This document shows positions 7,028 through 64,000 of a DNA stretch of 64,000 bases, piece by piece. Where the stretch lies: assembly GCA_951406725.2 (NCBI GenBank), contig OX597824.1:88660001-88724000 (forward strand), in the 5' to 3' direction. The first letter of the stretch is position 1; every line of letters starts with the position of its first letter. A model generated the notes under the pieces. That model was given only the letters and a program-made list of their open reading frames with translations, ran no database searches and had not been told where the DNA came from. The translations under genes and the position numbers were made by a program. The DNA is from Octopus vulgaris. Its lineage: Eukaryota.

Positions 7028-10000
7028 CTGAAAATATAACAACAAAATTATGTTTTTGTTAAGATATTGGCATGTCTTTGGGATAAATGTTAGAAGTAAT
7101 GGGTTTCTACACTTAAATCAACAACTAAAAAGAAGCAGCGGACATTGCTACTGCCACCATCACCACCACATGTCTGCTATAAAGTATACAGCAAATGCAA
7201 AAATTATGCAAAGAAGATGCCAGCGCCGCCTCGACTGGCTTCCGTGCCGGTGGCACATAAAAAGCACCATCCGAATGTGGCCGATGCCAGCGCCTTGCCT
7301 GGCTTCCGTGCCAGTGGCACATAAAAAGCACCAATCCGATCGTGGCCATTGCCAGCCTTGCCTGGCACCTGTGCCGGTGACATGTAAAAAGCACCCACTA
7401 CACTCACGGAGTGGTTGGCGTTAGGAAGGGCATCCAGCTGTAGAAACACTGCCAAATCAGACTGGAGCCTGGTGCAGCCTCCTGGCTTCCCAGATCCCCG
7501 GTCGAACCGTCCAACCCATGCTAGCATGCAAAACGGACATTAAACGATGATTATGATGATGATGATGAAATATACTTAGAAGTTAGACTTAATCCTAAGT
7601 CAGATTGTAACAGATGGGAATTTGATCTATTGGATTATCCCATAAATAATGTGTTTTCATTTGCATGAACTAAAAGTCAGAGGGGGGCGGAATAAACTAC
7701 TTGCATCAACTTGCTATAAAAGCAGGTAGCAAATTTACCATGTATTTATTCTTAGTGCAAGTTTTGAAAAGTGCAGTTCAATTTTAACATTTATTTTTTC
7801 AAAGCTATAATCATCATCATTTAGCGTCCGTTTTCCATGCTAGCATGGGTTGGATGGTTTAACTGGGGTCTGTGAAGCCGGAAGGCTTCATCAGGCCCAG
7901 TCAGATTTGGCAGTGTTTCTACGGCTGGATGCCCTTCCTAACGCCAACCACTCCGCGAGTGTAGTGGGTGTTTTTTACGTGCCACCTGCACAGGTGCCAG
8001 ACAGAGCTGGCGAACGGCCACGAACGGATGGTGTTTTTACGTGTCACCGGCACGGGGCCAGGCAATGCTGGCAACGGACACGAACGGATGGTGCTTTTAC
8101 GTGCCACCGACACGGGGCCAGACAGAGCTGGCAAACGGCCACGAACGGACGGTGCTTTTACGTGTCACCTGCACGGGGGCCAGCCGAGGCTGACAACAAA
8201 CATGAACGGATGGTGCTTGACAAACGAACATATTCAGTATATTTTGCTTTATGAGTTCAATAAAGGTGACAACACAACAAAAATGCAGTATATGGAGTTC
8301 GGACAATAAGCATAAGCCTGTGTCAGTGATGGTTCCTGAAATTCCGAGCCAGAAACTACAGCCTAGAAAAAAGCCTTGTCCTGGAAGTTCTGTAGAGCTC
8401 AACAAAGATGTCCTGCAAACCCTAGTGGAACAAAATCCCATCGTAACTGTTGAAGAGAAGCTTGGACTTGGTCATTCAACCATTCATCAAGATCTGCTTG
8501 CCATTGGAAAAGTCAACAAATTGGGTCAATGGGTTCCTTACAAACTTTCTGAGTTCAATTGCGTGCAGAGAGTGAATGTGTGCTCTTCTTTGCTATCAAG
8601 TCTCACGAATGAACCTTTTTTGGACTGAATAGTGACTGGTGACATGAAATGGGTTCTGTATAAAAATGTCAAGTACCAAAGAGAGTGGGTAGGGAAAGGA
8701 GAAACATGGGAACCCCAGGCTAAAGAAGGTCTTCCCCCACATAAGGTGTTGTTATATGTTTGGTGGGATATGAAAGGGTTAGTCAACTTTGAACTTTTAA
8801 AACCTGAACTAAACGATAACAAAGGAGATCTACTGTGAGCAGCTTGATCAGCTTAAGTCAGAGCTAGAAGAAAAATGACCATCTTTTGTTTCAAGACGAA
8901 AGTTGTTCTTCCATCAGGATAATGTTTGGCCACATACAGCAAGGATGACATGGCAAAAGTTGGAGCAGTTTGAATGGGAAACGATGCCCCACCTACCATA
9001 TTTACTGGACATTTCCCCTTCTGATTATCATTTATTCCACAGTCTTCAAAATCATTTGGATGGAAAAAGTATGAATTCTGTAGATGCAGTCGGAATAGTA
9101 CTGGAGGAGTATTTTTCGTCACAAACAAGGGAACTTTGAAAGAGGGGCCTTGCAAGTTTACCAGAAAGAGCATTGTAGAAAATGAAGGAGAGTATATTTT
9201 AGATTAAAAAAGAGGTTTGTTTATCTTACAAAAGAAGTTTAAAAAAAAACACATTATTTATGTGGTGCCCCAGCATGGCTGCGGACTTCGGGCTAAAACA
9301 TTTTTAAGGATTTAAGGATATGTGATGACCCAATATATTTATAAATGATACAATACAATACATACCAAGTAAAGTTCTAAGTATTGCTCTGGAGACACTT
9401 CTCCTATCAAATGCATCATAGTGTATCCCATCCGTATTAAATGAACTCCAGATCCTGGCAACCAGCTTCTAAAAACAAAAAAAAAACAAAGATGAAATAT
9501 TGAATAAAATACTAAGCAATGACTACCATCACTACCATTTACCCAAAATATTAAAATTAGACGACTCCAGTTACTAAAGTCAACGAAAACATAGGCTAAA
9601 CATGGTGAACATTGCTTTAGACTAACTAGTGACAAATCTTATACTAAAATATATGATAGCTTTAAGCCTTTTGCATTCAGGTTATTGTGTTAGATGTAAT
9701 GCTTGTTTGTTCACTTTGTTTTGAATTAATCATGCATTATCTTGTAGCTTTGAGATTTTGATAATGTAATTGTTCGTGGCCGTTGCCAGCCTCGCCTGGC
9801 CCCCGTGCCGGTGACACGTAAAAAGCACCATCTGTTCGTGGCCAATGCCAGCCTCGCCTGGCCCCCATGCCGGTGGCACATAAAAAGCACCATCCGATCA
9901 TGGCCGTTTGCCAGACTCGTCTGACACCTGTGCCGGTGGCACGTAAAAAGCACCCACTACCCTCATGGATTGGTTGGCGTTAGGAAGGGCATCTAGCCGT

Positions 10001-32473: not shown

Positions 32474-32944
32474 GATGTTTGAACGAATAAATCCAACTTT
32501 CTTCGTTGGTTTTCTTCAAAACATCTCAGTCGGTGCGCGGAGGGGGGGGTAATTATTTTACAAACAGCAATTGTGGTTATTAGATTCGCTTTTATTGTTA
32601 ATAATGTCGAATTAGAGAGAAAAAAAGAGTACCAAACTGAAATAGGCGTTACGTGGTATTGTCATTTCTTAAATTGGGCTTGATCTGTGTTAAGCGACAT
32701 TTTCCATCGCTCAAAAACGTGGGTAAATAATAAAAAAAACCTTTCGGGATTGAAATTTTGTCTTCGAATGAAGTCAGAGAAAAAGAGAGGGAGGGAGGGG
32801 GTACTGGAAAAAGAAGGCAACTATGGAACATCATTCGTACAATAAATATTTTGAGCAGAACTTTGCATATGTCGATTTGCGAAAAGAGTTTAGTAGTATT
32901 GAATGTAGTGTTAGTTGATCTTCCGATCGAAGAAAGGAAACCTG

Positions 32945-42830: not shown

Positions 42831-43415
42831 GTTAGAAGTCAGAGTTTATCATACTTTATGAAAATTTGGACAAAGAGAAGTTTAGAAGTAAAACAAAACA
42901 ACTGTTCATTTTGTACCACGTGGAAAAAGAATTTAAACTCCTTATTTTATTCATACATTCCGTCGGATAAAATAAAAGGATTAACTGTTATAACACTAAA
43001 ACTGGTTGATTATAGGCTAAGGTGAAAGAAACTGCTTAAGGTTTTAAAATCATTACTTGCGCTCCTGTAGGTTTTGTCTAGCAACGAAAGACGAGTTGTT
43101 TTGAAAATTAGTTTTGGCCGTGTTTAATTTTTAGGTTTCACCATTTCCAGTAAAATTTGAGGACACAACTACAGATGTGGTCCGCTTGATTTTGTTTTTT
43201 TAGTAACTTTTTGAAAAATGCACATTTTTTTAATGAAATTTTCAAGAGATACGTTTTAGGTGTAGATTAGGATTATACCGGAATTTGTTGCGAAGTTTGT
43301 TTTGTTTTCCGGAGAGTTGGAGAGAAGTTTCGGATTATTCACAGTCCTTGATTTTGTTTTTTCGTAACGTTCTGAAAACGACATTTTTAAACAAAATTTT
43401 CTTAATACAATTCAG

Positions 43416-43558
43416 GGCGATCCTTCGGTATAGGTACCGTAACAGAAACCCTTTTCTCCAACCCCTAACACAAACCCTAACCCCCCACCCATATATATAA
43501 AAAAAATCACTTTTTGAAATGTATCCGGTATTTCCGGTACCTATACCGAAGTTACGCC
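43416..43558. mobile_element. Small MITE, ~24-bp TIRs, imperfect 8-bp TSD, internal AACCCT-like repeats
   Basis: GGCGATCCTTCGGTATAGGTACCG / CGGTACCTATACCGAAGTTACGCC; flanks CAATTCAG / CATTTCAG. Confidence 0.7.
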
Positions 43559-43977
43559 CATTTCAGATGAGGGTAGATTACAAATATGTCAGAATTTCAT
43601 ATAATGTTTTCTTTTTTTTTTTGTAAATTGAGTAGGGGGTTTGATAATTTATGCACCTTGACTTTGTTTCCTCATACGTTCTAATGGGGTGTGTGAATTA
43701 TCCGCCTCACACCAATTATTTTTTTGTTTTGTTTTCGCATGAAATTCCGATATATTTGTAATCAGCGCCATCTGCAAATGTTATTTTAAGTTATCCATTT
43801 TGCAGTCACCCAAGAGGAAACAGATTATGCCAATTTGAATTTATGTGGATACTTATATTCACATATGTCTTATAATCATCATTTAAAGAATATAATAACG
43901 GAATTATGTCACAAGTGGGAGGGAAAGGCACACAAAAATGGATATGAATGTTCTTTTTATCTTAAAATAGTTAACCC

Positions 43978-46378: not shown

Positions 46379-49300
46379 ATGGAAGAAGACACAACTTTCA
46401 AAAATAACAACAAACCTTCGGATAATCTTGACCTTTGTGATTCTGGAGGTCGTAGAAATGAATTAGAATTTGAACAAAAGGAATCAATGGATCAAACTCG
46501 CAAGATAATCCCGTCTGATACACGATCCTCAAGTAATCAGGTTACTGACTGCAACATGCATTTGTTAGCAAATGCTGCTGACCACTTTATGCATCAGTCT
46601 CCTAGTCACCAGTTGGAAAGCAATGATGAAAGCACCAGGAAAATTACTGCTGAGCCAAGTCATCAGAGAGATTCTAATTATTCTCATCAAACCAATGTTC
46701 AAAGTCATCTTCCTAATAAGCCAGTTTTATCTCTTAATCCTAATAATTTAGCAGACTCAACAGTACAGGATTTAAATCTTGTTTCTGGTAGTTCAAGACC
46801 ATTGAATTATCCTTCTAGTTATTTAAGTAACAACCAAACTGTTGTATCTGCTAGTACAGCAAGCAGTCCCCTGAGTTCAGTTAATACTGTCAGCAGTTCA
46901 GTATCTATATCTAACAATCAACAGTGTTTAAGCTCTGAGCCAGTGTTATCAAGAAACTTAGAAAGACACTCTGATCTATTGCTTCCTCCAACTCCTCTTG
47001 TTAATACTCATCTGAGTTCTAATAGTTCCCTACAACAATCTTCAGTTGCATTACAACCAAATAATAACCCTATGTCTCCATACATAACTCAAACACCAGT
47101 TGTAACAGCATCTACAGATGGCACCTTAGTTGCTGGTAATAATAATTTGATAATTCAAAGGACTTCTGAAGCCGTTCCTACTTCTAGTGCTTACTGTCCC
47201 CCTCAGGTTCATCCAGTGGCTCAACCTCCCATACTGAGTTCAATTAATCCAGCTTCAGATAATAGCATGAATAAACTAAAGAGCCCTGTATCAACCATTC
47301 CTTCAGGTGGAAATGGTGTTAATTCACAAAATACTTTACCGCAGCAGAAGGGTCTGTCAAGTTCATCCTCCAAACCATTTCAAGCTACTTCTGTTTCAAC
47401 CTTCCCCACTACTACTCTTTCTCTGTCCAGTGTATATGTATCAAATAGCCATACTAGTAACAATGCAAGACAGAATCTTACAAGTTTAACCAGTAATCCA
47501 GAATCTCTAGAGACACCTTCTGTATCCAGTAGTTCTGTAATGTCCAACTTCAATAACCGGAAGCCAGAACAAAGTGATGCTGTTATCAAAAGCAGTTTTA
47601 TCAAAGAATCTTCAAATTCACCCTATTTGCCCACTACTTCTGCATCTACTCCTAATGAATTCATTGCAGAGCCGAGCAGCAAAGAATCTACGGTGATTCC
47701 AACAAGCAGCTCAGTCCATCGTACAAGCAGTACTGGAGGAACATCTCATGATAAAATATGCCCCAGTGATAGTAAACCTATTTCTGAAAGAAAAGATACC
47801 ATTCTTGAATCTAGTAATTCAGTTTTGTCTCGTAATAAGGATGTTATGTTATCCAAATCACAGGTTACCCCAGTTCAATCACACAATTTGACATCAGACA
47901 GTAATAGAACATTGCCAGTCGAAAGAGCTATGGTTGTGTCCACGTCAGGAGAGAAGGACACTGCTCCAGCTGGGGATAACCGTCCCTCCTTTTCTTTTAC
48001 TGCTAATGTAAATTCGCCATCTACCACGAATGTAGAATCTATTTCCCAGGATAATGCTACCGTACCTGCAACAAGTGAAACGGTAATGTCGACGCCAATT
48101 AAAATGGCAGAGTCATCTTCGTGTGTACGGAAAACATCAGAACCAGACTCTAAAGTCACTTCCTTATTGAATGAAAATGTAACGTCTGCATCTGGACAAA
48201 CGTTTGTAAGAACTCCTGCGACCAACTCACTGTTGCCATCCAGTTGCAATGAGACTTCAACATCAAGAGATGAGAAGACATCTAACGCTACCATAACAAC
48301 AGCTTCTGCTGGAAATGTGTCGTCTTCATCCGGAAGCAAGATAACTGAAGAAACTTCGATAAGTGAGGAAGACGCCACTGCATCAACTGCAACGGTCTCT
48401 TTGTCATCGTCTACTGGTCAGTCCACCCCAGCAGCTTATGATAAAAGGGCTTCAATGGACAATGATTTAGGTGTTGGTCTTTCTAATCCTAAACTTGATT
48501 CTAACAAATCTGAGGTTGAGCTTGCACCAAATAGCGCTCAAGACTCATTCCCTTCAACTTCTGAAGCAGCATGCTTGGATACTAACGTCACACATGCTGA
48601 AGAAAATGTCACGTCTCAACACGTTAGTCATTCACCTGCTGAATTAAACAATAATATTGAACCCAGGAAAATTAATAATGAATCTAAAAATAATTTGTTG
48701 TTGAGTAGCAGTACCGATGTTGGCCAATCAGCTCCTGATGTTGACTGCAACAACTCATCTGTGTCTGACAAGCATTACAAAGCAGTTCAAAATACAACAG
48801 TTAGTGCAAGTGCTTCAAATAATTTGCTTGAATCTGATAAAAACCAAGGGATTTCTACCAGTGGCCAAAATGAGGGAAATGATAAGAATACTGATAAACA
48901 CTTCTCTGTAGATAATATAAATAGCCCAGTGAATGCTGTCGGCTCGAGTAATTCTGTTGATCAGAAAACACATCCAAGTAATACAGAGAGTAACACTTGC
49001 AGTTCTACAATGACAAATTTAGTTCCGCAAACAAATGAAGATGATAACGATATGGTTCAGGCACAGATTGCTTTAATGAAAGAAAACATAAAGATCGAAG
49101 CTTCTGATGGTTCTTCAGTAAATGTGGTTAACGATGGTTCGTTAGAACCGACAGAGAAGACCGATGACTGTATGATGGAAGTTGATACGGAAGCAAGTCA
49201 CCCAGTTGAAAATAATGAAGAACATCGACAAATCAAGCAAGAATTAACTGCTGAAAACATTACCACAATCACCGACACTTCTTCACCGTTACCAAGCGAG

Positions 49301-49637
49301 GAATCTAATGATAAAACCAAGGGTGTTGATAGTAAAAGCAGTAATACTGATGATAAACAAGAGCCCTCCTGTGTAACACCAACTAACTGGAATTCTCCTG
49401 TTGGTGCTGTCAGTTATACTTTGGCTGAACCAAGGCGATCTCAAAGACAACCAAAAGTTAAGTTCAACGTTCTTGATCTCATTGGTTTAGGTCCAGATGT
49501 AGACATACAAAGCAAACCAGCTAAAACATTGAGTAAACGACTTTCAAATGCAGATTCTTCTGAAAATATTAGTAACGAAGAAACATTAGTGCTGGCATCA
49601 AACATTTCAGCATCATTTGTGCAAACGTCACCCACAG
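46379..49637 (+). CDS. Giant coding exon: ~1086 aa Ser/Thr/Asn-rich disordered region
   Basis: Track ORF 46307..49666; acceptor atttcAG at 46357, ATG at 46379, donor G|GTaaga at 49637. Confidence 0.9.
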
Positions 49638-51673
49638 GTAAGAATTTTTTTTTTTTTAATATGTAAGGTGATATTAACCCTTTCGTTACCAACTTGTCTA
49701 AAACTGCCTCTGGTTCTGTAGTACAAATGTCTTGTTTTCATAAGTTTTGAGTTAAAATCTTCCAATAGACCTTAGTCACAATTTATGTTCCTGTCACTAG
49801 CTTAATGATAACTCATCATCATCATCATCGTTTGACGTCTGCTTTCCATGCTAGCATGGGTCGGACAATTTGACTGAGGGCTGGCGAACCAGATGGCTGC
49901 ACCAGACTCCAATCTGATCTGGCAGAGTTTCTACAGCTGGATGCCCTTCTTAACACCAAGATGTCCTTCCTAACGCCAGAATGCCTTTCCTTAACACCAA
50001 TAGGATGCCCTTCCTAACGCCAATAGGATGCCTTCCTAACGCTAGGATGCCCTTCCTACTAAATTCTTTGTTATATTTGAAATTAATTGAAAGAAACACA
50101 GGACATCCCAACAAAAATTTATTAACAAAAGGATTAGCAAATGATTAATTTAACCCTTTTGATACCAACTTGTCTGAAATTGCCTCTGGCTCTGTAGTAC
50201 AAATGTCTTGTTTTCAAAAGTTCTAAATTAAAATCTTCCACCAAACCTTAATCACAGTTTATGTTCCTAACACTAGCTTAATGATAACTAAGTTATTTTA
50301 CTAAATTCTTTGTTATATTTAAAACTAATTGAAAGAAATACAGAGCATCTCTAAATACGGTAACGAAAGGGTTAATGAGGTGTTCAAGCTGCCAGAATCA
50401 TTAACTTGCAGGGCAAAATGTTTAGCGGCATTTTGTCTGTCTATACGTTCTGAGTTTGAATTCCAGGGCCAGCTTTGCCTTTTATCCTTTCAGGGTCAAC
50501 AAAATAAGTACCAGTTGAGTACTGGGGGTCAATGTATTTGATTTACCCACCTGCCCCGAAATTGCTGGCCTTGTGCCAAAATTTGAAACCAGTATTAATG
50601 GTTGCTTTGCTGATTAAATTTATGACCCACCAAATTGGTGATTTGACACTAGTCAAATTCAAATAGTTATTGCAACCTCTATTTGTTGGTCAGTAATCGA
50701 AATCGATCAACATCAATGGAAATTGCAGCTGTAATACCAGTGCCGGTGGCACGTGAGAGAACCATCCGAACGTGGCCGTTGCCAGTGCCGGTTTGACCTG
50801 GCCTCTGTGCCGGTGGCACGTAAAAAGCACCATCCAATCGTGGCCGTTTGCCAGCCTCGTCTGGCACCTGTGCAGGTGGCACGTAAAAAGCACCCACTAC
50901 ACTCTCGGAGTGGTTGGCATTAGGATGGGCATCCAGCTGTAGAAACACTGCCAGATCAGACGTGGCCTGGCGCAGCCTCCTAGATTCTCAGACCCCGGTC
51001 AAACCGTCCAACCCATGCTAGCATGGAAAGCGGACGTTAAATGATGATGATGATAATGTGTGTACTATGTCATATGAAACGTGGGGAATTCTGGCAAGTA
51101 ACCCCCACTATCAAAAGCCAAGTCGACTCAGTTCCTGTGTCACAAATACACATGCTGAGAACCAGGTATACTTGGTTCCTGCACAGTAAAGGTTAACCGT
51201 GCTTGGAAAGAAACTTTTGGGGAGAAAAAGAAATAGCCTCAATTTGTAAAACGTCAAATTGTATTTTAACCTAATTCTTTATTCTTTTACTTGATTCAGT
51301 CATTTGACTGTGGCCATGCTGGAGCATCGCATCTAGGTATCTCCTCCAGTTGTTTTCTATGTAGAGGGAGAAAGGGCTGCCATATCTTTCTAGAACCTTA
51401 CGATACAGACTGATTTCTAAATATCCCATGACTAGGTTGGCAAGAGAATCACGCCAACGAACTACCACATCGCATCAAAAAAGAATTCGTGATAGAAGGG
51501 GTTAAATTCATCCTGGAAAATAACTTCTAATTTAATTATTTAATCGTTACAGTTGAAAAGGTCTCAAAATGACTGAAACAGGTACTGAAATGTTCTTTAT
51601 AAAATTATTTTAGCATTTTCTATTTTGACTTATTTTTTCATATATATCAACTCGTGTGTTCCTTTTCATCCTT

Positions 51674-51738
<65 letters not shown>

Positions 51739-54700
51739 GCGGGCTTCTTTCAGTTTCCATCTAGCAAATTCACTCACAGTGCCATGCAGTGGGACTGAAC
51801 CCAGAACCATGTTGTTGGGAAGCAAGCTTCTTACCACACAGCCACTCCTGCTCCTATCATAATATCTATTTATTTACCTTTTTTTGTATTTTAGCTTCAA
51901 AGAAGTGTAAAGAAGCTGACTCAGAGAAAATATATGCACCGTTTGAACAAGGTAAAATTTTAACTTGTTTATTCTGTAGATTTGTATTTTGTACCATTCT
52001 ATACATGACTTGTTTAGTTCCATCATTAAAAGCCTTTTTGCTCAGGCACAATCCAACCAGGACCATGCCACCCAATCTGTCCTTTTCTTTGTATAACTGT
52101 TGGAGGTGACTGAAGAAAGAATTATATTGCTAATTGTAACAGTTTGAATGATTTTTCATCATCATCATCATCATCATCAACAACAGCCTCCTCCTCCTCC
52201 TTCTTCTCCTGACATTATTGTCCTGAGCCCTAGGACTTATACCTGGCCGGTGACCAGGTTTCTTGTGTTGTATAAGTGATCAAGATCACATCATCCCCCT
52301 GGATGGGATGCCAGACCATCGCAGGGTTACTCATTTACAGCTGAATGAACTGAAGCAACATCAAATGAAGTGATTTGCTCTAAAACACAATGCACTGCCA
52401 GGTCCAGGAATCGAAACCACAATCCTATGATTGTGAGTATAACCCCCTACCAACTGAGCCACGCTCCTTTACAATTATTTTTCTGTCGTGTGTGAATTTA
52501 CAGTTTCCTTATTTTTCTGATTTTTTTTTCCTCCTAGGCTGGAGAAGAGAAGTTGTTATTCGTTCAGTGTATAAAGAATTCACCAAGTTAGGCAAACCAA
52601 AGACAGCACCAGCGGATATTTACTATTATACTCCTGATAACAAGAAACTGGTAATGAATTTTTTATTTCATCTCGTTTCTATGTTTTATCACCAATTTGT
52701 CAGTAATAGTAATTGGTGTTTATTCTTTTAATCTTTTACTTCAGTCATTTGACTAGGGCCATGCTGGATCACTGCTTTAAAGGGTCTTTTAGTTGAAGAA
52801 ATTGATGGGCTTCTTTCAATTTCCGTCTACCAAATTCACTTACAAGGCCTTGGTTGGCCTGAAGCTATAGTAGAAGACACTTGCTCAAAGTGCCATTCAG
52901 TGAGACTGAACCCAGAACCATGTGGTTGGGAAGCAAGCTTCTTACCACACAGCCACTCTTGCTCCTATCATAATATTTATTTATTTACTTTTTCTTTGTA
53001 AGCCTGGTACTTATTCTATCGGTTCCTTTTGCCAAACCGCTAAGTTACAGGGACATAAATGGTTGTCAAGCGATGGTTGGGGAACAAACACAGACACAAG
53101 GACACACACATTGGGTTGAGGAATAATTCATGAGCATGTTTTTCAAATACATTTTAAACAAAAAAACTGCAACAGATTAACCCTTTAGTGTTCGTATTAT
53201 TCTGCCAAAATTAATCCTTTTTTATCCACATTGTTTTGAACTAATCATGGCTTATCTTGTAGCTATGAGATTTTGATGAGGTAGCTGTTAATTTTTAAAA
53301 CGATATTGTAGGGTTGGTCTGAGAGACCAGATCTGGCCAGTTTGAACATAAAACAGGCAGTATACTTTTGGCCGGATATGGCTAGTTTAAATGCTAAAGG
53401 GTTAATCAATAATATACTCTCCATTATTGTTTATGATTTCCTCCCATTGTTCAATAAGTTTTACGATGCCTTGGCAATAGAAATCTCCTGGTCTTGACTC
53501 AAAGCATTCATCCAACCAAGCCCTTAATTCCACATCATTATTGTACAATGCGCTGCACAAAGCATTCGAATGCGGTCAAAAGAGATGAAAATCTGACCGT
53601 TTAAAGTCTGGGGAGTATGGAGAATGAGGCAGCACTTCCCATTCAAGTTCTTGAATCGTGGCTTTGATCATATCGGCAATGTGAGGAGAGACATTGTCGT
53701 GTTGCAGATGAATGCCATTTCATCTCTTCGGTCTTTTTTGCTGAAATGCTTCGTCGGGTCGGTGTAGTTGTTGAACGTAGAGCTCCACATTGAGTGTTTG
53801 GTTATGCTCAAGCAGTTCATATTGAATTATGCCTTCCCAGTCCCACCATACAGGGCAACATGGCCTTTCAAGGATGACAGTCTTATTTTGCTCACAGAGT
53901 GGCTTCTTTGTCAAGGCTGAGCCATTCTTTTCGCTGCTTCATATTGACTTAAAGGCACCATTTTTCATTGCCAGGGACAATGTGGTAAAGAGAACGCTGT
54001 TTGTGTGTTGAGTGATATTGAGTGAGGTAACTGGTGGTGATTGTGGAGCATTGATTTTTGTTGTTTTTCGCTCAAAGTGTGTGGCACCCAAGTGCCGAGG
54101 TTCTGAACCTTGCCCATTGCGTGAAGGTGGTTCACAACAGTTTTTGATCACAATCCATCTGTTGGAAATAAATGGGTTTGGGGAGATATGGATATAAGGA
54201 ATGAGTAAAGAATCTACTGTAGACTGTTACAAGTTAATTAGTTAGTTAATTAGTTAGTTAATTTTTTGGCTCAAAAGCAAAAAGCAAGGCCATGTAGGGG
54301 GACATGGAGTTATGTACAGGGTGGTGTTCATGTAAAGAGTCCAGGCCACTTGAGGTCAAGGGAGACTTTGAACAAAGCGGTTGTCGGCATCTTCACCATC
54401 TCGTCTGGCAGCTTGTTCCACGGATCCGCAACCCAGACGGAGAAAGCTCCTCTCCTTCGATTGAGATGAAATCGCCGCAGGTAGAGCTTTTCGGAATGAC
54501 CCCGCAGCCGACGCTCTGGAGCAGGAGTGAAGAACAGCTCTTTCGAGAGGTTACACTTTCCGCTTATGATGTTGTGAGCGAGATTTCCTCCCTGAGAAGA
54601 AAGTGCAAGAAGTGATAATACAATCGACTAAATTGGACATGCTTGTTTTCTGTGAATGAGTTAATTTTTGTGTGTGTGCGTGTGCGCGTGCATATAGTTG

Positions 54701-56722
54701 TATATTTAATATATTTTAAATAATTTTAAACATTATTTTTTTATATTTTTTTAGCGATCAATGGTACAAATTGTTAATTACTGTAAGTATCATTTAAGTT
54801 TTTTTTTTTTATTCATCTTAAGAATGAATTTTGTATAGATGTATAGTGTTAAAATGCTCTGAAGAATATCAGTAGCAGATGAAAATTGGATTTAGCAATT
54901 CCGTTGCTGGATGATTTTTGTCTGCTGCTGGTCTTCCTCTGTATTTTTTAGCACTGTTTGTCTATTTGGGAAGCTTTCTCGAGACAAATACTGCAGTTGT
55001 GTGGCTTTCTTCAGTGTATCCATTTTAAATATACATACAATATACATACAAAGACACATACAATAGGAATACAAAATACAAAAGGGCTGACCGTTAGTAA
55101 GGAGAGACACACAAATAAGAAAGAAGAAAGCAAAGGACCACTGATGGGTTCACAGAAGTGTGACGAAAGAACTCTGGCCGAAATAAGATTAAGATTAATG
55201 TAAAAAATAAATAACGCTGAAGCAAATTGATACCAAATATACAGTGCGTGTGTTTTTATTGGCTAAACTGGCAAAATGACCATTCCTAAATACAACAACT
55301 TCTGTTTCAACACACGATTTCACATCAAGAATCTTGCAAAACAAATATATAAACGTAACATTTTAAATATGTTATCCAGAATACTATTTTGAAATAAATA
55401 TGCGAGTCATTGTCTCTTTCTAATCAAGATTCTGTCTCCTTGTCTTCATTGCTTTCAACTTGAATCTATTAATTAGTTTCATAAGATATAAATTCCTACC
55501 AAGGAATAGACTTATGGGTTTCTAGTCATTAGTGAAGTAAATCGATATATATTAATGGACAGATTGTAAAGTTTACTCTCTCTTTTACTCTTTTACTTGT
55601 TTCGGCCATTTTACTATGGCCATGCTGGAGCACCGCCTTTAGTCAAGCAAATCAACCCCAGGACTTATTCTTTGTAAGCCTAATACTTATTCTATTGGTC
55701 TCTTGCCGAACCACTAAGTTACGGGGATCTAAACACACTAGCATTGGTTGTCAAGCGATGTTGGAGGGACAAATACAGACGCACAAACATGTACACACAC
55801 ACATACACATATACTACGGGCTTCTTTCAGTTTCCAACTACCAAATCTACTCACAAGGCTTTGATCGGCCTGAGGCTATAGTAGAAGACAGTTGCCCGAG
55901 GTGCCACGCAGTGGGACTGAACCCGGAACCATGTGGTTGGTAAGCAAGCTGCTTACCACACAGCCACTCCTACACCTATGTTTGTTATAATAAATATTTC
56001 ATATAGTTTATTTTTGTGTTACTTTTTTTTGTTTTTTTTTCTATTTAGCTGATTTATCTTTTTATTTTGCAGTAGAAGGAAAAAACACAAACTTGACAGT
56101 TGAAAACTTCAACTTTCTACGCCGACCTATTTATGAACCACCGTTTGAGATGGTGCGTACAGCCGGCAGCCATGGAGTCCGGCACAGAAGCCCAGACGGT
56201 GAATTTTTATTCAATAAGAAATCTAGTAAGAAAATTCGAAAAGAATCTTATGGAAGTAATGACTCCATGACTATTGAAGACGATTCAGATGTGCAGCTTA
56301 TAGAAAGTCCTTCATACAAGGAATTGTCTCTGACGGGTGGTAAAGCAAACAACAAATTCTCCAAATTGAAATCCAAATCAAGTCCTGCAAAGCGTCAGGC
56401 GGAGAATAGTAATTCCAGTGAGGTAACTCCGAAGCGAATAAAATCCGTTGCTCGAAAGAGTACAACTCTAATTTCTAAATCAATGTTGTAAGTATTTTTT
56501 TATCTATTTCCTGTAGTTTTCCCAAGAATTTACTCTTTTACTCTTTTCAGTCGTTTGACTGCAGCCATGCTGGAGCACCGCCTATAGTCGAGCAAATCGA
56601 CCCCGGGACTTATTCTTTGTAAGCCCAGTACTTATTCTATCGGTCTCTTTTTGCCGAACCGCTAAGTGACGGGGACGTAAACACACCAGCATTGGTTGTC
56701 AAGCAATGCTAGGAGGACACAA

Positions 56723-56769
<47 letters not shown>

Positions 56770-57138
56770 ACAGGTTTCTTTCAGTTTCCGTCTACCAAAT
56801 CCACTCACAAGGCTTTGGTCGGCCCAGGGCTATAGCAGAAGACACTTGCCCAAGATACCACGCAGTGGGACTGAACCCGGAACCATGTGGTTGGTTAGCA
56901 AGCTACTTACCACACAGCCACTCCTTCACAATTCTGAAATTCTTTCTCCATTTGTAATTTAGAATTCATGTAAAGGTGCAGGCATGACTGTGTGGTTAAG
57001 ATGCTTGCTTTGTAACCACATGATTCTGGGTTCAGTCCCACTGCACAGCACCTTGGGCAAGTGTCTTCTATTATAGCCCCATGCCAGCAAATGCCTTGTG
57101 AGTAAATTCAGTAGTTGGAAACTGTGTAGAAGCCCATC

Positions 57139-57175
<37 letters not shown>

Positions 57176-59266
57176 CCTGCTCGCTTAGCCAGCGGGGTGG
57201 CGTCATTTTAAGGCTAAAAGAATGCGAAGCGCATTGTGACCAGCGATGTGTAACAACATCTGATAGCCTGGTCGGTCACGTAATCACGTGATATATATAT
57301 ATGTATACGTGTTTGAGTCTGTGTCTGTCTGTCTCTCCCCCTACCACTTGACAACCAGTGTTGGTTTGTTTACATTCCCGTAATTTAAATAGTTCAGCAA
57401 AATTGGCCAATAGAATTAGTACCAAGCTCAAAAATAAGTGTGGTGTTGATTTCTTGGAGTGAAAGGTTTCAAGGTGGTGCCCCAGTATGGCCACAACCCA
57501 GTGACTGAAACAAGTAAAAAATAAACAGTTTTCAATAATTTGCTTTTGTCTTTCATTTGAAGTCCCCTAAAAATCATCTGTAGGATTGCATTGATGCCAA
57601 TACATAGAGTAGCAGAGCAAGTAACCGAAATAGTAGCAGCAACACTTTATTACAGTTTAACCCTTTTGTTACCATACGTAAAAAGCACCATCCGACTGTG
57701 GCCGTTTGCCAGGCCTGTCTGGCACCTGTGCTGGTAGCACGTAAAAAGCACCCACTACACTCACAGAGTGGTTGGCGTTAGGAAGGGCATCCAGCCGTAG
57801 AAACATTGCCAGATCAGACTGGACCTGGTGCAGCCTTCTGGCTTCCCAGACCCCAGTTGAACCGTCCAACCCATGCTAGCATGGAAAGTGGACGCTAAAT
57901 GATGATGATGATGATTTCTGCTGAGATGCTCGGGGCTTCTTTCAATTAATTCTAAATATAACAAAAAATTTAGTAAAATAACTTGGTTATCATTCAGCTA
58001 GTGTTAGGAACATATATTGTGACTAAGGTTTGGTGGAAGATCTTAATTTAGAACTTATAAAAACAAGACATTTGTACTACAGAGCCAGAGGTGGTTTTAG
58101 GTGGGTTGGTATCAAAAGGGTTACTGTGACGTCATCACTAGTGCTTTCTACATGGTACCAGCATGAGTGCTTTTAACCTTTTTGTTCCCATATTTCTGTT
58201 GAGATGCTCTGTGTTTCTTTCAATTAATTCTAAATATAACAAAGAATTTAGTAAAATAACTTAGTTATCATTAAGCTTGTGTTAAGAGTACATAAATTGT
58301 GACTAAGGTTTGGTGGAAGATTTTAATTCAAAACTTATGAAAACAAGACATCTGTACTACAGAGCCAGTGCCAGTTTCAGCTGTTTGAGATGCTCTGTGT
58401 TTCTTTCAATTAATTCTAAATATAACAAAGAATTTAGTAAAATAACTTAGTTATCATTAAGCTAGTGTTAAGAGCATAAATTGTGACTAAGGTTTGGTAG
58501 AAGATCTTAATTTAGAAATTTTGAAAACAAGACATTTGTACTAGAGCCAGAGGCAGTTTCAGACAGGTTGCTATCAAAAGGGTTAAAGATTTCATCATCA
58601 TCATCATCATTTTAACTTCCACTTTTCCATGCATGTATCAAGGCTGGTTTTTTTTTTTTTTTTTTTTTTTTTTTTGGCTGGATGCCATTCCTGTTGCCAA
58701 CCCTCTGTATCTAAATATTTTTAGGGGATAGTGGAAATGAAGGACATCACGTGCATGTTGATAACACTCCTTTGCAACTATCACAGAAAGTGAAGGCACA
58801 CACACACACACAAAGAGGGCTTCTTTCATTTTCCATTTTTTTTACAAATATTAATTTAGATTTCAGTGCTTTTCTAAATCTACTTAAATGGCTAAACCAA
58901 AAACAATCTCAGAGGCTTGCTTCATTGTATGTTCAATCTGTAGTGACCACCACTGTAAATCACAATTTGTTAAATGTTTCAATTTATATTTATTGCAGAG
59001 TTAATATGAACAAAAGAAATTCTTTCCAACCCTGTTCCCTCAACTGTCCAGGCCTTACAGGCATTCCTCCTCAACTGCATTGTGATATATGCATGTGTCT
59101 ATTTCATAATTCATGTGTAAACCTGAAAGAAGATGAGGTTCCTCAAAATTTCAAATGCAAAGTAAGCACTTTTAACATTATACCAATCTTAGTATTAACC
59201 TTTTGCCAGTTGAAAACATAAGTTTGTCCTAAATGTCTGGTTTTCAGACATTTAGTTAATCCTTAT

Positions 59267-59316
<50 letters not shown>

Positions 59317-62070
59317 AATTATTGTGTCTAGTGCTCAGGTGCACTACAACTCATCAAAGGTTCATGTACAGAACATAGAATTATGTACAAAAGTCAAGAA
59401 AGTGAACAGTGTATGAGTCAAGATATATATAATATATAATGAAATTATTGTATACAGTGCTCAGGTGCACCACAACTTGTCAAAAGTGCATATAAAGCAT
59501 ATGCAGTAATGTACAAATGTCTGGAAAGTGAACAGTGTATGTGTCAGATACATATTCGCGTGTGTATGGAGGGGAGAAAATCAGGTGTAGTGTTGGCGAA
59601 TCTCAGGAAGCATGGAAGTTTTGAAGGATGCAGTGCTCCTACTTTTGAAGGATGCAGTGCTCCGACTTTTGAAGGATGTATCTACGTATGTATAATAATG
59701 ATAATAATAATAATAATGAAATTATTGTATACAGTGCTCAGGTGCACCACAACTTGTCAAAAGTGTGTATAAAGCATATATAGTAATGTACAAATGTCTG
59801 GGAAGTGAACAGTGTATGAGTCAGATACATGCTTGCGTGTGTATGGAGGGGAGAAGATCAGGTGTAGTGTTGGCGAATCTCAGGAAGCATGGAAGTTTTG
59901 AAGGATGCAGTGCTCTGACAACTAACAACTGATGCTAGCAGTTTGTTCCATGCTTCAGCAACTCTTAGCGTGAAAAAATGTTTCCGAAAGTCATGGGAGC
60001 TGTGCTGTTTTCTGACTTTGTAAACATGTCCACAGGTGTTAGACAGGTGGAGTTTGAAAAGGTGCTCAGAGTTATTGTTAGTAAGATGGTTGATAATTTT
60101 ACAGGTGTCTGCCAAGTCAGCTGCCATATACATATGTGCATGCATGTTTTATACTTTCTGGGTAATATAAAGTTTTCCTTACACAAGTCCCAAATTACTG
60201 TGGGATTTTAAAAAAAAATAGCAATGTTTATCAGATGATACATTGACACCGGGCAAGTAAGTCGTTTGTGTCATGTGATACACAAGACAGACAAATCTTC
60301 CCTTCTTCCCATTTACAGATATCTCTCTTTTCTCTCTTTTACTTGTTTCAGTCATTTGACTGTGGCCATGCTGGAGCACCGCCTTTAGTCGAGCAAATTG
60401 ACCCCGGGACTTATCCTTTGTAAGCCCAGTACTTATTCTATCGGTCTCTTTTGCCGAACCGCTAAGTGATGGGGACGTAAACACACCAACATCGGTTGTC
60501 AAGCAATGCTAGGGGGACAACACAGACACACAAACATATGCACACACATACATATACACATATATATACATATATATGACAGGCTTCTTTCAGTTTCCAT
60601 CTACCAAATCCACTCACAAGGCATTGGTCGGCCCGGGGCTATAGTAGAAGACGCTTGCCCAAGGTGCCACGCAGTGGGACTGAACCCGGAACCATGTGGT
60701 TGGTTAGCAAGCTACTTACCACACAGCCACTCCTGCGCCTGTTTTTATTTTTCTTAAAACTAAATTGACTTTGAATTATACTCTTTGTTAGATGATTAGA
60801 TTAATTATTACCTCTAATTTGACTAATTTCAGAACTGTGAAATGGATCTTGGTGATTGGATTCCCCCAGTTGAAACCACTGCATCTAATAGTTTGTCTGG
60901 TAATAGAACAGTCAAGACGCATCATTCTTCATGGAATAATGAAAAGGGAAGAAAATCTACCATGCCATCTGTGATTCAGCTTTCTAAAGATACAAACTTT
61001 TTATCTCAAGCATCCAAATCTGATTCTCAGCTGTTAAAAAGTGCTTCGAATGGATCCCCTAGATACGTTGTCATGAACATTGTAAAATCCACCGATTCCT
61101 TATCACCTGATCCCTCACAATCCTATCATATAAAAGACTTGCAGTCCTCTTCAGACATCCCAGATTGCAAATCTCAAATCCAAGCTTCACTCAATACATT
61201 GCAAGCGTCCGTAAGTCCTCGTTTGAAATCAAACAAATCTAATAACTCATTAAACGCATCAAAGACTCTGTCTCACTCTTCGCCACCTTTACCTCATTCA
61301 GTTCCTTCTTCAATGCTGAAAGACACCAGCAGTATTTCAGAAACTACAGCACCCAACACTTTCACAGTCACAAACACTCCCTCTACAAGTGCTTCTTTCA
61401 ATACACTCATCCAAACCCCAAAAGACTTGAATGATACTACCTCATCATCATCATCACCACCATCTGATTGTCCTGTAAATGCTTCATCTAAATCTCTCAC
61501 TTCCACTCACTCACAACCTAATCTATCATCAGCCAATATTAAACTGGAAGTTCCAGCTTCATCTCCAAGTAGTTCTAGTAATGTTAGGGATGGTGATGCT
61601 GGCAAAGACAATTACCCACGCTCAGGCCAGCTTCTTACATTACCATTAGCAGTAGCAAAGCGTTTAGATTCCTCTCTTCCTCTTGCATTACGCATCAATA
61701 ACATGCAGCTCTTTATCCCCCCATCCCGTTGCATAAACACACCTGAAGGATTAAAGGTTTTTCTGCCACCCAAGACATTTTCGGTACCCAGTGGCTCCAC
61801 AACCACAATGAATATAACCTTTTCATCGGGTACTGTGTCTGGTGATAGTACCAAAGATTACTCTGTGTCTCTCTTGGAGAAGAACAAAGCAAGTGAAAGC
61901 AATCCAGCTGTAGATAAAAGTAAAACCTTGGAATCTGTAAAAACAATCAGCAAAGTTCAAAAATGCCGAAGCAAATTTAACAACTACCTGTGTCCTTTCA
62001 AAAAATTATATTCTGGCTACTCTAGTATGCTGCAGATATTTCACTATTTAAGTGCAGGAGATCTTGCCAG
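46379..62070 (+). CDS. MBD-PHD-F-box protein gene, 3'-incomplete (whole span in window)
   Basis: Seven in-frame exons with AG/GT boundaries: 46358(ATG 46379)-49637, 51895-51951, 52538-52650, 54755-54782, 56073-56487, 58999-59161, 60833-62070. They encode an MBD (PFEQGWRREVVIR...ADIYYYTPDNKKLRSMVQIVNYL...LTVENFNF), a C4HC3 PHD and an F-box-like start (MLQIFHYLSAGDLAR). Confidence 0.85.
49674..50375. mobile_element. piggyBac-like MITE P2 dimer with nested family B fragment
   Basis: TTAA-CCC termini; family B insert at 49814-50057. Confidence 0.75.
50697..51056 (+). mobile_element. Family B element
   Basis: Same consensus. Confidence 0.8.
51895..51951 (+). CDS. MBD exon a (ASKKCKEADSEKIYAPFEQ)
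   Basis: ttttAG|...G|GTaaa; phase 1->1. Confidence 0.85.
52538..52650 (+). CDS. MBD exon b (GWRREVVIRSVYKEFTKLGKPKTAPADIYYYTPDNKKL)
   Basis: cctAG|...|GTaatg; GWxR and DxYYxxPxxKxL signature of MBD domains. Confidence 0.92.
53111..54190 (-). mobile_element. Decayed mariner transposase remnant
   Basis: Fragments VWWDWEGIIQYELL...YVQQL, HDNVSPH and LPHSPYSPD..SDFHLF on the minus strand; interrupted by a TTAA MITE. Confidence 0.85.
54232..54612 (-). mobile_element. CR1-type LINE 3' remnant with short tandem tail
   Basis: LRGHSEKLYLRRFHLNRRRGAFSVWVADPWNKLPDEMV...LFKVSLD; TAACTAAT-like tail at 54232-54262. Confidence 0.75.
54755..54782 (+). CDS. MBD 28-nt micro-exon (RSMVQIVNY)
   Basis: Long T tract + AG|...|GTaagt; supplies the RS..Y helix that the MBD needs; phase 0->1 fits its neighbours. 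Confidence 0.85.
55575..55978 (-). mobile_element. SINE family A
   Basis: Same consensus. Confidence 0.8.
56073..56487 (+). CDS. MBD C-terminal end plus basic linker (LEGKNTNLTVENFNFLRRPIYEPPFEMVRTA...)
   Basis: ttgcAG|...|GTaagt; track ORF 56093..56491; phase 1->2; Lys/Arg-rich NLS-like segments. Confidence 0.88.
56530..57522. mobile_element. Head-to-head SINE family A pair (- 56530-56925; diverged + 56974-57522)
   Basis: Same consensus, opposite orientation. Confidence 0.8.
57657..58586. mobile_element. piggyBac-like MITE P2 cluster with nested family B element (57674-57914)
   Basis: TTAA-CCC...GGG-TTAA termini and shared body. Confidence 0.75.
58999..59161 (+). CDS. PHD finger exon (CSLNC...HCDICMCLFHNSCV...FKCK)
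   Basis: ttgcAG|...|GTaagc; C4HC3 spacing completed by NC in the next exon. Confidence 0.88.
59265..60105 (-). mobile_element. CR1/L2-type LINE 3' remnant, same family as 23.5 kb, with tandemly duplicated 3' UTR
   Basis: NTCGHVYKVRK...RKHFFTLRVAEAWNKL; the 3' UTR block recurs at ~59315, 59440 and 59717. Confidence 0.8.
60325..60740 (-). mobile_element. SINE family A
   Basis: Same consensus. Confidence 0.85.
60833..62070 (+). CDS. Exon with PHD end, Ser/Pro-rich region, hydrophobic island and start of an F-box
   Basis: tttcAG|AAC TGT GAA ATG; track ORF 60842..62074; ends GCC AG|GTgagt inside YSSMLQIFHYLSAGDLAR. Confidence 0.85.
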
Positions 62071-62805
62071 GTGAGTTTCTGAATAAATTTACTCTGAAAT
62101 GTTTTAAACTCGAGACATTTTCTTGAAACAGTTGTGTGTGTGTGTGTGTGTGTGAGAGAAGAGGGATGAAGAAGACTAACAAGCCAAAACTTCGAAGTCA
62201 CTATTCACCCACTTCTTGTAGAAGTTTAATAAACATGTTCTCTACTAAAACGTATTGAGTAATTCTTCAGTTTAATGTGAAATTGTTTTTATATATGTGA
62301 CAAAAACAAACACAACTGCCTACAACCTCAATACAATTGACATGTACAGGCACAACAAATTACTTTTTTCCATAGGCTGAAACAGCTGTAAGTGATTTTA
62401 ATGATTTTAACAATTTATATTAATGTTTTTTTTTTAATAACTGCTTGTATTCTTATCTTATATGCATTGAATAATATACTATATGTATGTATATGTTATT
62501 ATGGTTGTCGTTTTGATAAATAAATAAGTCAACATTCTAATATCCTAAAGCTGATGAACCAACTAATGTGTTTCTCCATTTTCTTATTTGTAATATATAT
62601 ATATAGAGAGAGAGAGATAGATAGATATATAACTCCAATAAAGTTAGAGGTTGTGAATCCAACCAACTAAGGGATAATATCTATCCAATATACTGCTGAT
62701 AGAATACCCAGTTATTAATACACAAGCGTTTTTTTATTGCATTGCAATTACATTACCTAGCGTACTCAATGGGTGAAGGTAAAGAGATATTTTACCATTA
62801 ATTTA

Positions 62806-63342
62806 TATAGCAATAAGAAAATGGAGGGGATCAGTAGGTGGTTCATCAACTTTTAGACATTATATTATGTTAATTTATTTATTTACTTACTAAACTGACA
62901 ATTACAATAATATACATACATGTCTAACATATGCTTTACAAATAAAATATAAAATATATTAATATATATTGATACCAGTAATTAGTATAAAATAACAAAC
63001 ATGAATATAAATTGGGAAAAATATCTTACAGCTGTTTCGGCCAAGAGGTAAAAATACCTCAGTCTACTTGAGTAATAAAGGTAGAATGAGGTATTTTTAC
63101 CTCTTGGCTGAAACAGCTGTAAGCTATTTTCCCAATTTATATTCATGTATGTTATTTTGTAATAATTACTGGTATCATTATATATTAATATATCTTATAT
63201 CTTATATGTAAAGAATAATATGTTTTATGTATGTATATTCTTGTAATTGTCAGTTTAGTAAATAAATAAATAAGTTAGCATAATATAATGTCTAAAAGTT
63301 GATGAACCACCTATTGATCCCCTCCATTTTCTTATTGCTATA
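62806..63342. repeat. Foldback inverted repeat, ~255-bp arms (PLE-like 3' end)
   Basis: Arm 62806-63061 mirrors 63087-63342; each arm carries GAAACAGCTGTAAG; related single copies at ~13750-13930 and ~62370-62595. Confidence 0.9.
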
Positions 63343-63351
63343 TATATATAT

Positions 63352-63620
63352 ATCATCATCATCGTTTAGCATCCGCTTTCCATGCTAGCATGGGTTGGAC
63401 GGTTCAACTGGGGTCTGGGAAGCCAGAAGGCTGCACCAGGCCCAGTCTGATCTGGCAATGTTTCTACGGCTGGATGCCCTTCCTAACGCCAACCACTCTG
63501 TGAGTGTAGTGGGTGCTTTTTACGTGCCACCGGCACAAGTTCCAGACGAGTCTGGCAAACGGCCACAATCGGATGGTGCTTTTTATGTGCCACCGGCACG
63601 GGGGCCAGGCGAGGCTGGCA

Positions 63621-63621
<1 letters not shown>
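63352..63621 (-). mobile_element. Family B element
   Basis: Same consensus. Confidence 0.8.
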
Positions 63622-63651
<30 letters not shown>

Positions 63652-64000
63652 TGTATATACACACATATACACAAACACACACACACAACTACATATTATA
63701 TGCATAGCTAAAATCTCCAAAGAAACAAAAATTTGTAGATGCCCATGATACGCAAGAACTAATGCTATCCATTCCGTTTTATTACCATATTCTGAATGGT
63801 ATAAATCATACCTATTGCATTGTCCAACTTAACGGGTGTATAATGAATTGCCAGATCCTAAATGCCGGGTGTTCAAACCATAAAAATCCAGAGATTTTTT
63901 CTTTTTAAAATATATGTAAAATAAAATAAAATAAAATAAAAAATAAAAAAAGAATGCAGTCTTTTCTTTACTTTTAGAGTGGTTTTAAAAGATTTGTCAT

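Follow-up and report, generated by a model that had tools for sequence, protein, structure and literature searches.

An MBD-Fbox gene of Octopus vulgaris with conserved CpG-contact residues, a predicted SKP1 interface and a histone H3K9-like motif

The new analysis of a stretch of Octopus vulgaris DNA (the window, 64,000 nucleotides long, G000:C11:88660001-88724000) identifies a gene whose product is a member of the protostome MBD-Fbox family and carries, in one chain, a methyl-CpG-binding domain (MBD), a PHD-type zinc finger, an F-box and leucine-rich repeats (LRRs). The MBD retains the full methyl-CpG contact set, the F-box-LRR part is predicted to have an FBXL-type fold and a SKP1 interface, and the linker ahead of the PHD finger displays a motif that resembles histone H3 around lysine 9. 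The protein may tentatively be viewed as the CpG-tethered substrate receptor of an SKP1-CUL1-F-box (SCF) ubiquitin ligase, with a methyl preference in the octopus, a reading that we place slightly below an even chance.

A sequence-only reading of the window had spliced seven exons into a disordered region, an MBD, a PHD finger and the start of an F-box, and had let the gene run on past the window into an exon that should continue the F-box; all of this is borne out. The seven in-window exons, like all features given below, lie on the forward strand, between 46379 and 62070; all their introns are GT-AG, and conceptual splicing yields an open frame of 1757 amino acids. Exon 1 (46379..49637) provides the ATG and about 1086 residues of low-complexity sequence with predicted disorder, 948 of 1086 being identical in P0021, the RefSeq protein of O. 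bimaculoides; a further 5' exon is likely, because a splice acceptor stands before it. The MBD starts in exon 2 (51895..51951, 57 nucleotides (nt)), has its core in exon 3 (52538..52650; Pfam MBD E 5.8e-4 for this exon alone), passes through the 28-nt microexon 4 (54755..54782), whose residues are identical in P0020 and P0021 (9/9), and ends in exon 5 (56073..56487), which also encodes a conserved C-terminal extension and a basic linker. Exon 6 (58999..59161) holds the PHD-type C4HC3 finger minus its last cysteine, which is located in exon 7 (60833..62070) together with a disordered linker, a beta domain and the first half of the F-box (61997..62070, …YSGYSSMLQIFHYLSAGDLAR); the exon 7 stretch has a single match across the octopus genome. 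Intron 7 (62071..64000) leaves the window, and the next exon lies 4.2 kb downstream. Translation and tblastn with a bivalve-like homologue revealed exons 8-15 in the downstream DNA (G000:C11:88726231-88740927; the extended coordinates continue the window numbering and include the next 100 kb), where they complete the F-box and add the LRRs. Exon 8 (extended 66231-66282) continues the F-box, reading R followed by CSLVCKSWHQLATQPSL, and is succeeded by exons 9 (68722-68808), 10 (69719-69921), 11 (72788-72932), 12 (73314-73418), 13 (75327-75433), 14 (76798-76909) and 15 (80604-80927), the last of which ends with the stop.

The complete model of 15 exons and 2135 amino acids has one stop, at its end, and is letter for letter P0029, a protein that carries the label 'serine-rich adhesin for platelets' in the Octopus vulgaris annotation, a label judged to be a misnomer and one that, we infer, stems from the disordered exon 1 sequence. 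P0021 agrees with it exon for exon over all 15 exons (1943 of 2134 aligned residues identical), and the homologues P0001 and P0020, of transcript type, show the same layout in a single open reading frame (ORF). Splicing is further documented by contigs from all four public runs considered (four studies), which skip introns 2-5 at the predicted sites, with the joint of exons 2 and 3, both joints of the microexon and the joint of exons 5 and 6 each present in 4/4 runs; in each of three runs, one contig (6987-7484 nt) holds exons 3, 5 and 6. That these runs are RNA is a guess for all four, not a matter of record, and the joints are nonetheless spliced. The single transcript proposed earlier for the MBD, PHD and F-box exons is therefore seen in contigs for the joints of exons 2-6, while junctions 1-2, 6-7 and 7-8, and with them the F-box joint, rest on the annotated proteins, on P0001 and P0020, on the position of the last PHD cysteine in exon 7 and on the contigs, which extend 3308-3309 nt beyond exon 6, where the model needs 2373 nt of coding sequence. 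A 48-letter piece of each contig in this part matches an intronic repeat, presumably because the transcript carries a repeat in its 3' part.

Several observations concern variants of this transcript and its surroundings. The longer annotated isoform P0186 (2175 amino acids, 40 extra N-terminal residues) uses an upstream coding exon at 32823-32910, the coding use of which is uncertain because the contigs leave only about 130-140 nt ahead of the ATG at 46379; P0185, isoform X2 of O. sinensis, has its annotated end just past exon 13 (1993 amino acids) and drops the last LRRs. Within exon 5, three substitutions in 7 nt (56140-56146) occur in two of the four runs and are probably another allele or population. 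The ratio of observed to expected CpG reaches 1.09 at 43000-43600, against 0.35-0.46 in the coding exons, and this stretch may represent an unmethylated element, promoter-like or repetitive, ahead of a gene body that is methylated. The window introns are crowded with common octopus SINE-like repeats, and inspection by eye finds a mariner-like transposase fragment at 8221-8625 as well as, downstream of the gene, decayed LINE-type reverse transcriptase pieces (L003, extended 87154-88827) and a hAT-like transposase remnant (L004, extended 95338-95940 and 97915-99945).

An MBD and an F-box within one protein are common to the octopus model and its relatives. A word-indexed search returned 19 proteins, from bivalves, gastropods, a chiton, Capitella, a leafhopper and decapods, and a profile search of 50%-identity representatives returned 267 proteins at E <1e-30, the best 150 of which were examined and 30 looked up by name. 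The named members add Diptera, beetles, Hymenoptera, Hemiptera, ticks, a mite, a spider, the horseshoe crab, Priapulus and Owenia, and the same layout recurs in single ORFs of molluscs, annelids and arthropods; there is no deuterostome or cnidarian member among the 30 named clusters, most matches being without a name. In the Atlas, clusters with MBD and F-box comprise 53-135 members. The earlier guess that such proteins had been sighted in invertebrate MBD surveys proves right, since the MBD-Fbox family was named, in two mentions, by de Mendoza et al. 2019 (PMC6673714). Capitella CAPTEDRAFT_219279 (Ctel_219279), which is P0013 and matches the octopus model at E 8e-56 and 7e-25, adjoins the labelled Strigamia MBD_Fbox row in Table S3 of that paper, together with Tribolium and Daphnia rows; the Strigamia row is the one so labelled, and the other three are placed in the family by their neighbouring position and their sequence. 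The octopus protein thus shares MBD and F-box with the published family, including this direct Capitella match, whereas the published block has no cephalopod or fly member and its accompanying passages are silent on the PHD, the LRRs, the beta domain and the H3 mimic, as well as on residue analysis and function. In a literature search that covered few subscription journals, the term MBD-Fbox was found in PMC6673714 alone and no functional study was found, so the architecture is known by name yet unstudied; the H3K9 mimic and the fly contrast described below were likewise not found in print. New here are a BAZ2-like MBD with methyl-CpG residues, the predicted SKP1 binding, the H3K9 mimic and the beta domain.

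Residues ~1100-1185 form the MBD. Alignments to MBD1 and MBD2 place MBD1 R22, D32, Y34, R44 and S45 at octopus R1114 (52561-52563), D1132 (52615-52617) and Y1134 (52621-52623) in exon 3 and at R1144 and S1145 in exon 4, where R1144, the second arginine finger, is the first codon of the microexon. In solved MBD complexes the recognition core consists of Arg22, Arg44 and an Arg22-Asp32 salt bridge, and Tyr34 boosts MBD affinity about tenfold (10.1101/338061). Among 111 family MBD matches, 103 have all five positions readable once eight partial MBDs are dropped; the full set is kept in 91 of these, R22 in every one and R44 in 102. The octopus protein thus keeps the same five residues as MBD1, MBD2, MBD3 and MeCP2, from which its family differs by a longer L1 loop, BAZ2-like flanks and a C-terminal extension, by an end in F-box-LRR rather than in a repression domain, and by its retention in insects without CpG methylation. 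Our conclusion is that the MBD-Fbox family has conserved a base-specific reading of a CpG-like step, and the octopus domain presumably binds DNA; a preference of the octopus MBD for methylated CpG appears about evenly balanced. Other MBD exons of the octopus genome lie at L013-L015 (G000:C17, C15 and C20), of which, by eye, L014 is MBD2/3-like and L015 MBD4/MeCP2-like; the present gene escaped the Pfam genome search, its MBD being spread over four exons.

The opposite end of the protein is an F-box followed by an LRR solenoid. Pfam places the MBD (45.7 bits, cut-off 21) and the F-box-like domain (52.2 bits, cut-off 24.3) of P0021 above threshold, the F-box being well over it in all seven proteins scanned, while LRR_14 (35.5 bits, cut-off 40) and PHD_5 (13.3 bits, cut-off 27) stay below, so that two of the four domains pass the Pfam thresholds. 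The F-box-LRR model (predicted local distance difference test, pLDDT, mostly 85-95) finds its best fold match in FBXL2-SKP1 (Z 24.9, root-mean-square deviation 3.6, 321 residues aligned; Foldseek E 2.3e-8), ahead of FBXL17 (Z 24.5) and SKP2 (Z 18.2); the whole-model search is informative for the LRR part and silent on MBD and PHD. A complex of P0021 residues 1725-2142 with a stand-in metazoan SKP1 from a metagenome contig, by eye close to the octopus SKP1 exons, was predicted with a score of 0.77, compared with 0.02 for the best of three controls, with at least 78% contact agreement between runs and partner pLDDT of at least 81. The SKP1 binding proposed from sequence is thereby predicted by complex modelling, with an interface between F-box residues and SKP1 helices 103-162. 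In a calibration on eukaryotes, solved pairs reach that mark in 71 of 105 cases and unrelated pairs in 2 of 126; because F-box-SKP1 complexes have already been solved and are a textbook pair, the pass indicates likeness rather than binding. Assembly with CUL1 would be likely. The octopus protein therefore resembles FBXL2, FBXL17 and SKP2 in its F-box, its LRR solenoid and its predicted SKP1 interface, and differs from them in also having an MBD, a PHD finger and long disorder.

Twenty residues ahead of the PHD finger, exon 5 encodes KSVARKST (56441..56464), a mimic of H3 residues K4-T11 with a K9-like lysine at K1281 (56456-56458) that the sequence-only reading had overlooked. The H3 tail from the same octopus genome reads KQTARKST, and the match extends to six of eight residues in the octopus protein and up to seven of eight in relatives. 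The pattern Kx[TV]ARKST recurs in every named molluscan protein (12 of 12, spanning four classes) and in each of five mollusc-like proteins without a species name, where it sits amid poorly conserved linker sequence; shuffling the octopus protein 20000 times produced ARKST by chance in 58 cases, and the region is disordered in the Lottia model (pLDDT <50). In LIG1, WIZ and ATF7IP, known ARK or ARKS mimics receive methylation from G9a/GLP and are recognised by chromo- or Tudor domains (PMC10611923, PMC6172828), and the same may therefore hold for K1281, which by this analogy would be methylated by G9a/GLP-type enzymes and then bound by HP1-, MPP8- or UHRF1-type readers, a possibility somewhat short of evens. 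The octopus motif is like those of LIG1, ATF7IP, WIZ and G9a in placing ARK[S/T] in a disordered stretch; it differs in being largely confined to molluscs. Two points weigh against such a function: Capitella, Owenia and most arthropod-like matches lack the mimic, with scattered ARKS forms elsewhere, and ARK motifs are common. A phmmer search of the stretch against PDB gave no match.

The protein as a whole runs from about 1090 residues of S/T/N-rich disorder through the MBD, the basic linker, the C4HC3 PHD finger, more disorder and the beta domain to the F-box and LRRs, and the AlphaFold2 model of a Lottia relative shows four folded islands, which are the MBD, the PHD, the beta domain and the F-box-LRR; of its 1126 residues, 532 have a pLDDT <50. 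Pfam PHD-type matches on exon 6 remain under cut-off (E 0.001-0.009), and the finger (residues 1303-1347) is assigned from its invariant C4HC3 pattern and its folded model because no Pfam threshold was reached; it has a C-x3-C first pair and the sequence L-F-H, and its Cys/His ligands are invariant across the family alignment. PHD fingers that read H3K4me3 usually carry a cage tryptophan two residues ahead of the zinc-binding histidine. The corresponding position, L1325 in the octopus, is L or M in 20 aligned proteins and never the cage Trp; octopus KDM2 has I-V-H at the same place, and the earlier remark that L-F-H lacks the cage Trp, as in KDM2, is correct. The conserved, unnamed beta domain (residues 1607-1680, 61616..61840, about 75 amino acids, GQLLTLP ... 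KVFLPP), also overlooked before, is common to molluscs and annelids and is modelled with a mean pLDDT of 79. Its motif was not seen in four arthropod proteins checked by motif, and arthropod calls based on a hidden Markov model (HMM) are HMM artefacts. The octopus copy matched no Pfam family, fold searches returned no match (Foldseek best E 0.9, VIA best Z 4.0), the Atlas gave no usable match and the PDB sequence matches were spurious LRR hits; these fold nulls show neither a new fold nor the absence of one. An AbrB/MazE swapped-hairpin fold, which inspection by eye and weak Pfam MazE matches (3 of 14 members, best E 0.041) had hinted at, was rejected when the fold searches returned no match. 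Among relatives, P0016 (Homalodisca) has an extra canonical PHD finger N-terminal of the MBD (residues 207-259), and P0076, P0079, P0083, P0074 and others have PHD, F-box and LRR without a detectable MBD. In Onthophagus, isoform X1 has the MBD and isoform X2 is without it, and the MBD-less members seem to reflect an alternatively spliced or unannotated MBD exon.

The insects give mixed signals on the role of methylation. Diptera lost DNMT1, DNMT3 and CpG methylation (PMC6220294), and eight of nine dipteran MBDs depart from the five-residue set, compared with 4 of 94 others (the nine are eight named proteins and one assigned by tree, and most of the 94 are without a taxon name). This rate derives from the 103 readable MBDs rather than from ten proteins picked for their deviant look. 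The only conserved MBD columns changed in at least half of the dipteran sequences are D32 (5/9) and S45 (7/9). A general relaxation of the dipteran MBD is ruled out, as its conserved cells deviate to a degree (10%) similar to that of the F-box-LRR (6-12%). In a FastTree tree, Drosophila P0157 falls outside the dipteran clade (eight tips, support 0.98), a position probably due to a long branch.

Set against a methyl-selective MBD is the rival view of an SCF adaptor whose MBD is TAM-like or reads unmodified CpG or TpG and anchors the ligase to double-stranded DNA or RNA whether methylated or not, with targeting left to the PHD finger, AT-hooks and partners. The points that weigh for it concern the scaffold, the tree and the insects. 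The best PDB sequence match of the MBD is the BAZ2B TAM (E 4e-11, versus 9e-8 for MBD2); the L1 loop from R22 to D32 measures 17 residues in the octopus and 11-18 in the first 21 proteins, against 9 in MBD1; and the MBD is followed by a conserved C-terminal extension (F-x-F-x-R-x-P-I ... E-x-V-R-x-A, exon 5) with one extra predicted strand (P0011 266-270). In BAZ2A, the extension tilts beta1 and blocks the canonical binding mode, and putting the arginines into its TAM leaves binding to methylated DNA, an mCA duplex, unchanged (PMC8600091). In a published tree (PMC6673714), MBD-Fbox falls together with BAZ2 and SETDB and not within the methyl-binding clades. The BAZ2 likeness extends to a similar N-terminal helix, the F-x-F end and AT-hooks nearby, which follow the MBD in many relatives, as in BAZ2A, and in none of the cephalopod members. 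Dipterans moreover keep R22 and R44 (9/9) and Y34 (8/9), and their D32 and S45 changes are conservative and come from one lineage; Y34 is changed in two hemipterans; and Tribolium, which is without CpG methylation (PMC6220294), keeps all five contact residues. Since the arginines persist in methylation-free Diptera and Tribolium, methyl dependence is not obligatory for the family. On the other side, BAZ2 proteins are without the base-reading residues R22, D32, Y34 and R44 (PMC8600091), true TAM domains having lost a set that is unneeded for backbone binding and that 91 of the 103 family MBDs keep; the octopus MBD has no TAM-type lysines at its arginine-finger positions; and the dipteran drift falls mainly on D32 and S45. 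BAZ2A and BAZ2B also have DDT and PHD-bromo modules and no F-box. The methyl-blind explanation appears rather unlikely, and the earlier claim of methyl-CpG targeting is upheld as to its intact contact residues, methyl-selective binding in the octopus being as likely as not given the BAZ2-like scaffold and the methylation-free carriers.

A second alternative concerns the output of the protein, which would be a scaffold of the KDM2B/FBXL19 kind that binds SKP1 with CUL1 largely absent and recruits a chromatin complex (PRC1.1-like or other) through its LRRs. KDM2B binds PCGF1/BCOR (PRC1.1). Like KDM2A, KDM2B and FBXL19, the octopus protein has the order DNA reader, PHD, F-box and LRR, a PHD without an aromatic residue two before the histidine, and an atypical F-box start, which lacks the Leu-Pro with which the usual consensus begins and is shared with octopus KDM2; after the family's own clusters, the nearest in the Atlas are FBXL19 and KDM2B (0.84-0.86, a lead only), and among the top PDB sequence matches it is KDM2B (E 1.8e-6) whose F-box-LRR alignment runs longest in one stretch. 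BLAST against octopus KDM2, however, aligns the F-box alone (16 of 42 identical) and not the LRRs, SKP2 scores as well or better (E 4e-8), and FBXL2 and FBXL17 lead by fold. Octopus KDM2 is a separate gene on another chromosome with CxxC, PHD_4, F-box and LRR, its F-box-LRR lying in one open frame and not in nine exons as here; the sole genome match to PF16866 (PHD_4) is on another chromosome, and the present protein has no PHD_4 match, no JmjC and, in place of the CxxC finger with which KDM2A/B and FBXL19 read unmethylated CpG (PMC3685328), an MBD, a CxxC zinc finger having no Pfam match in the seven family proteins scanned. The suggested mirror image of KDM2/FBXL19 is thus a fair analogy of layout and holds for domain order, whereas KDM2 kinship as the origin of this layout is unsupported, and nothing in the analysis points to a PRC1.1-like complex for the octopus protein; the scaffold explanation is accordingly improbable. 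Finally, a chance splice or fused gene model, in which the domains would not form one protein, could draw on junctions 6-7 and 7-8 resting on proteins rather than reads and on the wrong public name, but it is effectively refuted by the identical annotated protein, the 91% identical O. bimaculoides protein, the single-ORF layout across phyla and the spliced contigs.

The reading of a CpG-tethered SCF receptor suggests the following division of labour. The MBD would grip CpG steps, in the octopus probably with a preference for methylated ones; the F-box would bind SKP1 and thereby enter an SCF ubiquitin ligase; and the LRRs would keep a chromatin protein in place to be ubiquitylated. Octopus 5-methylcytosine (5mC) is located on the bodies of broadly expressed genes (PMC9476566), and an E3 ligase would thus be placed there, while in flies the two arginines of the same protein may be used on unmethylated CpG or TpG. 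A more ambitious proposal, which we regard as doubtful in its entirety, portrays MBD-Fbox as an overlooked reader of gene-body 5mC wired to SCF, whose molluscan H3K9 mimic would be switched by G9a or coupled by it to HP1/UHRF1-type readers, and which would constitute a methylated-CpG counterpart of KDM2/FBXL19 of independent, BAZ2-type origin that is apparently missing from vertebrates.

The findings touch on a long-standing question, that of the function of gene-body methylation in invertebrates and of its readers. MBD-Fbox proteins combine a full methyl-CpG contact set with an E3-adaptor module, yet group outside the methyl-binding clades and are hidden under wrong database names. Should the MBD turn out to be methyl-blind, the family would still represent an uncharacterised chromatin E3 adaptor conserved across protostomes, of moderate interest, and the existence of a fly orthologue brings its genetics within reach.

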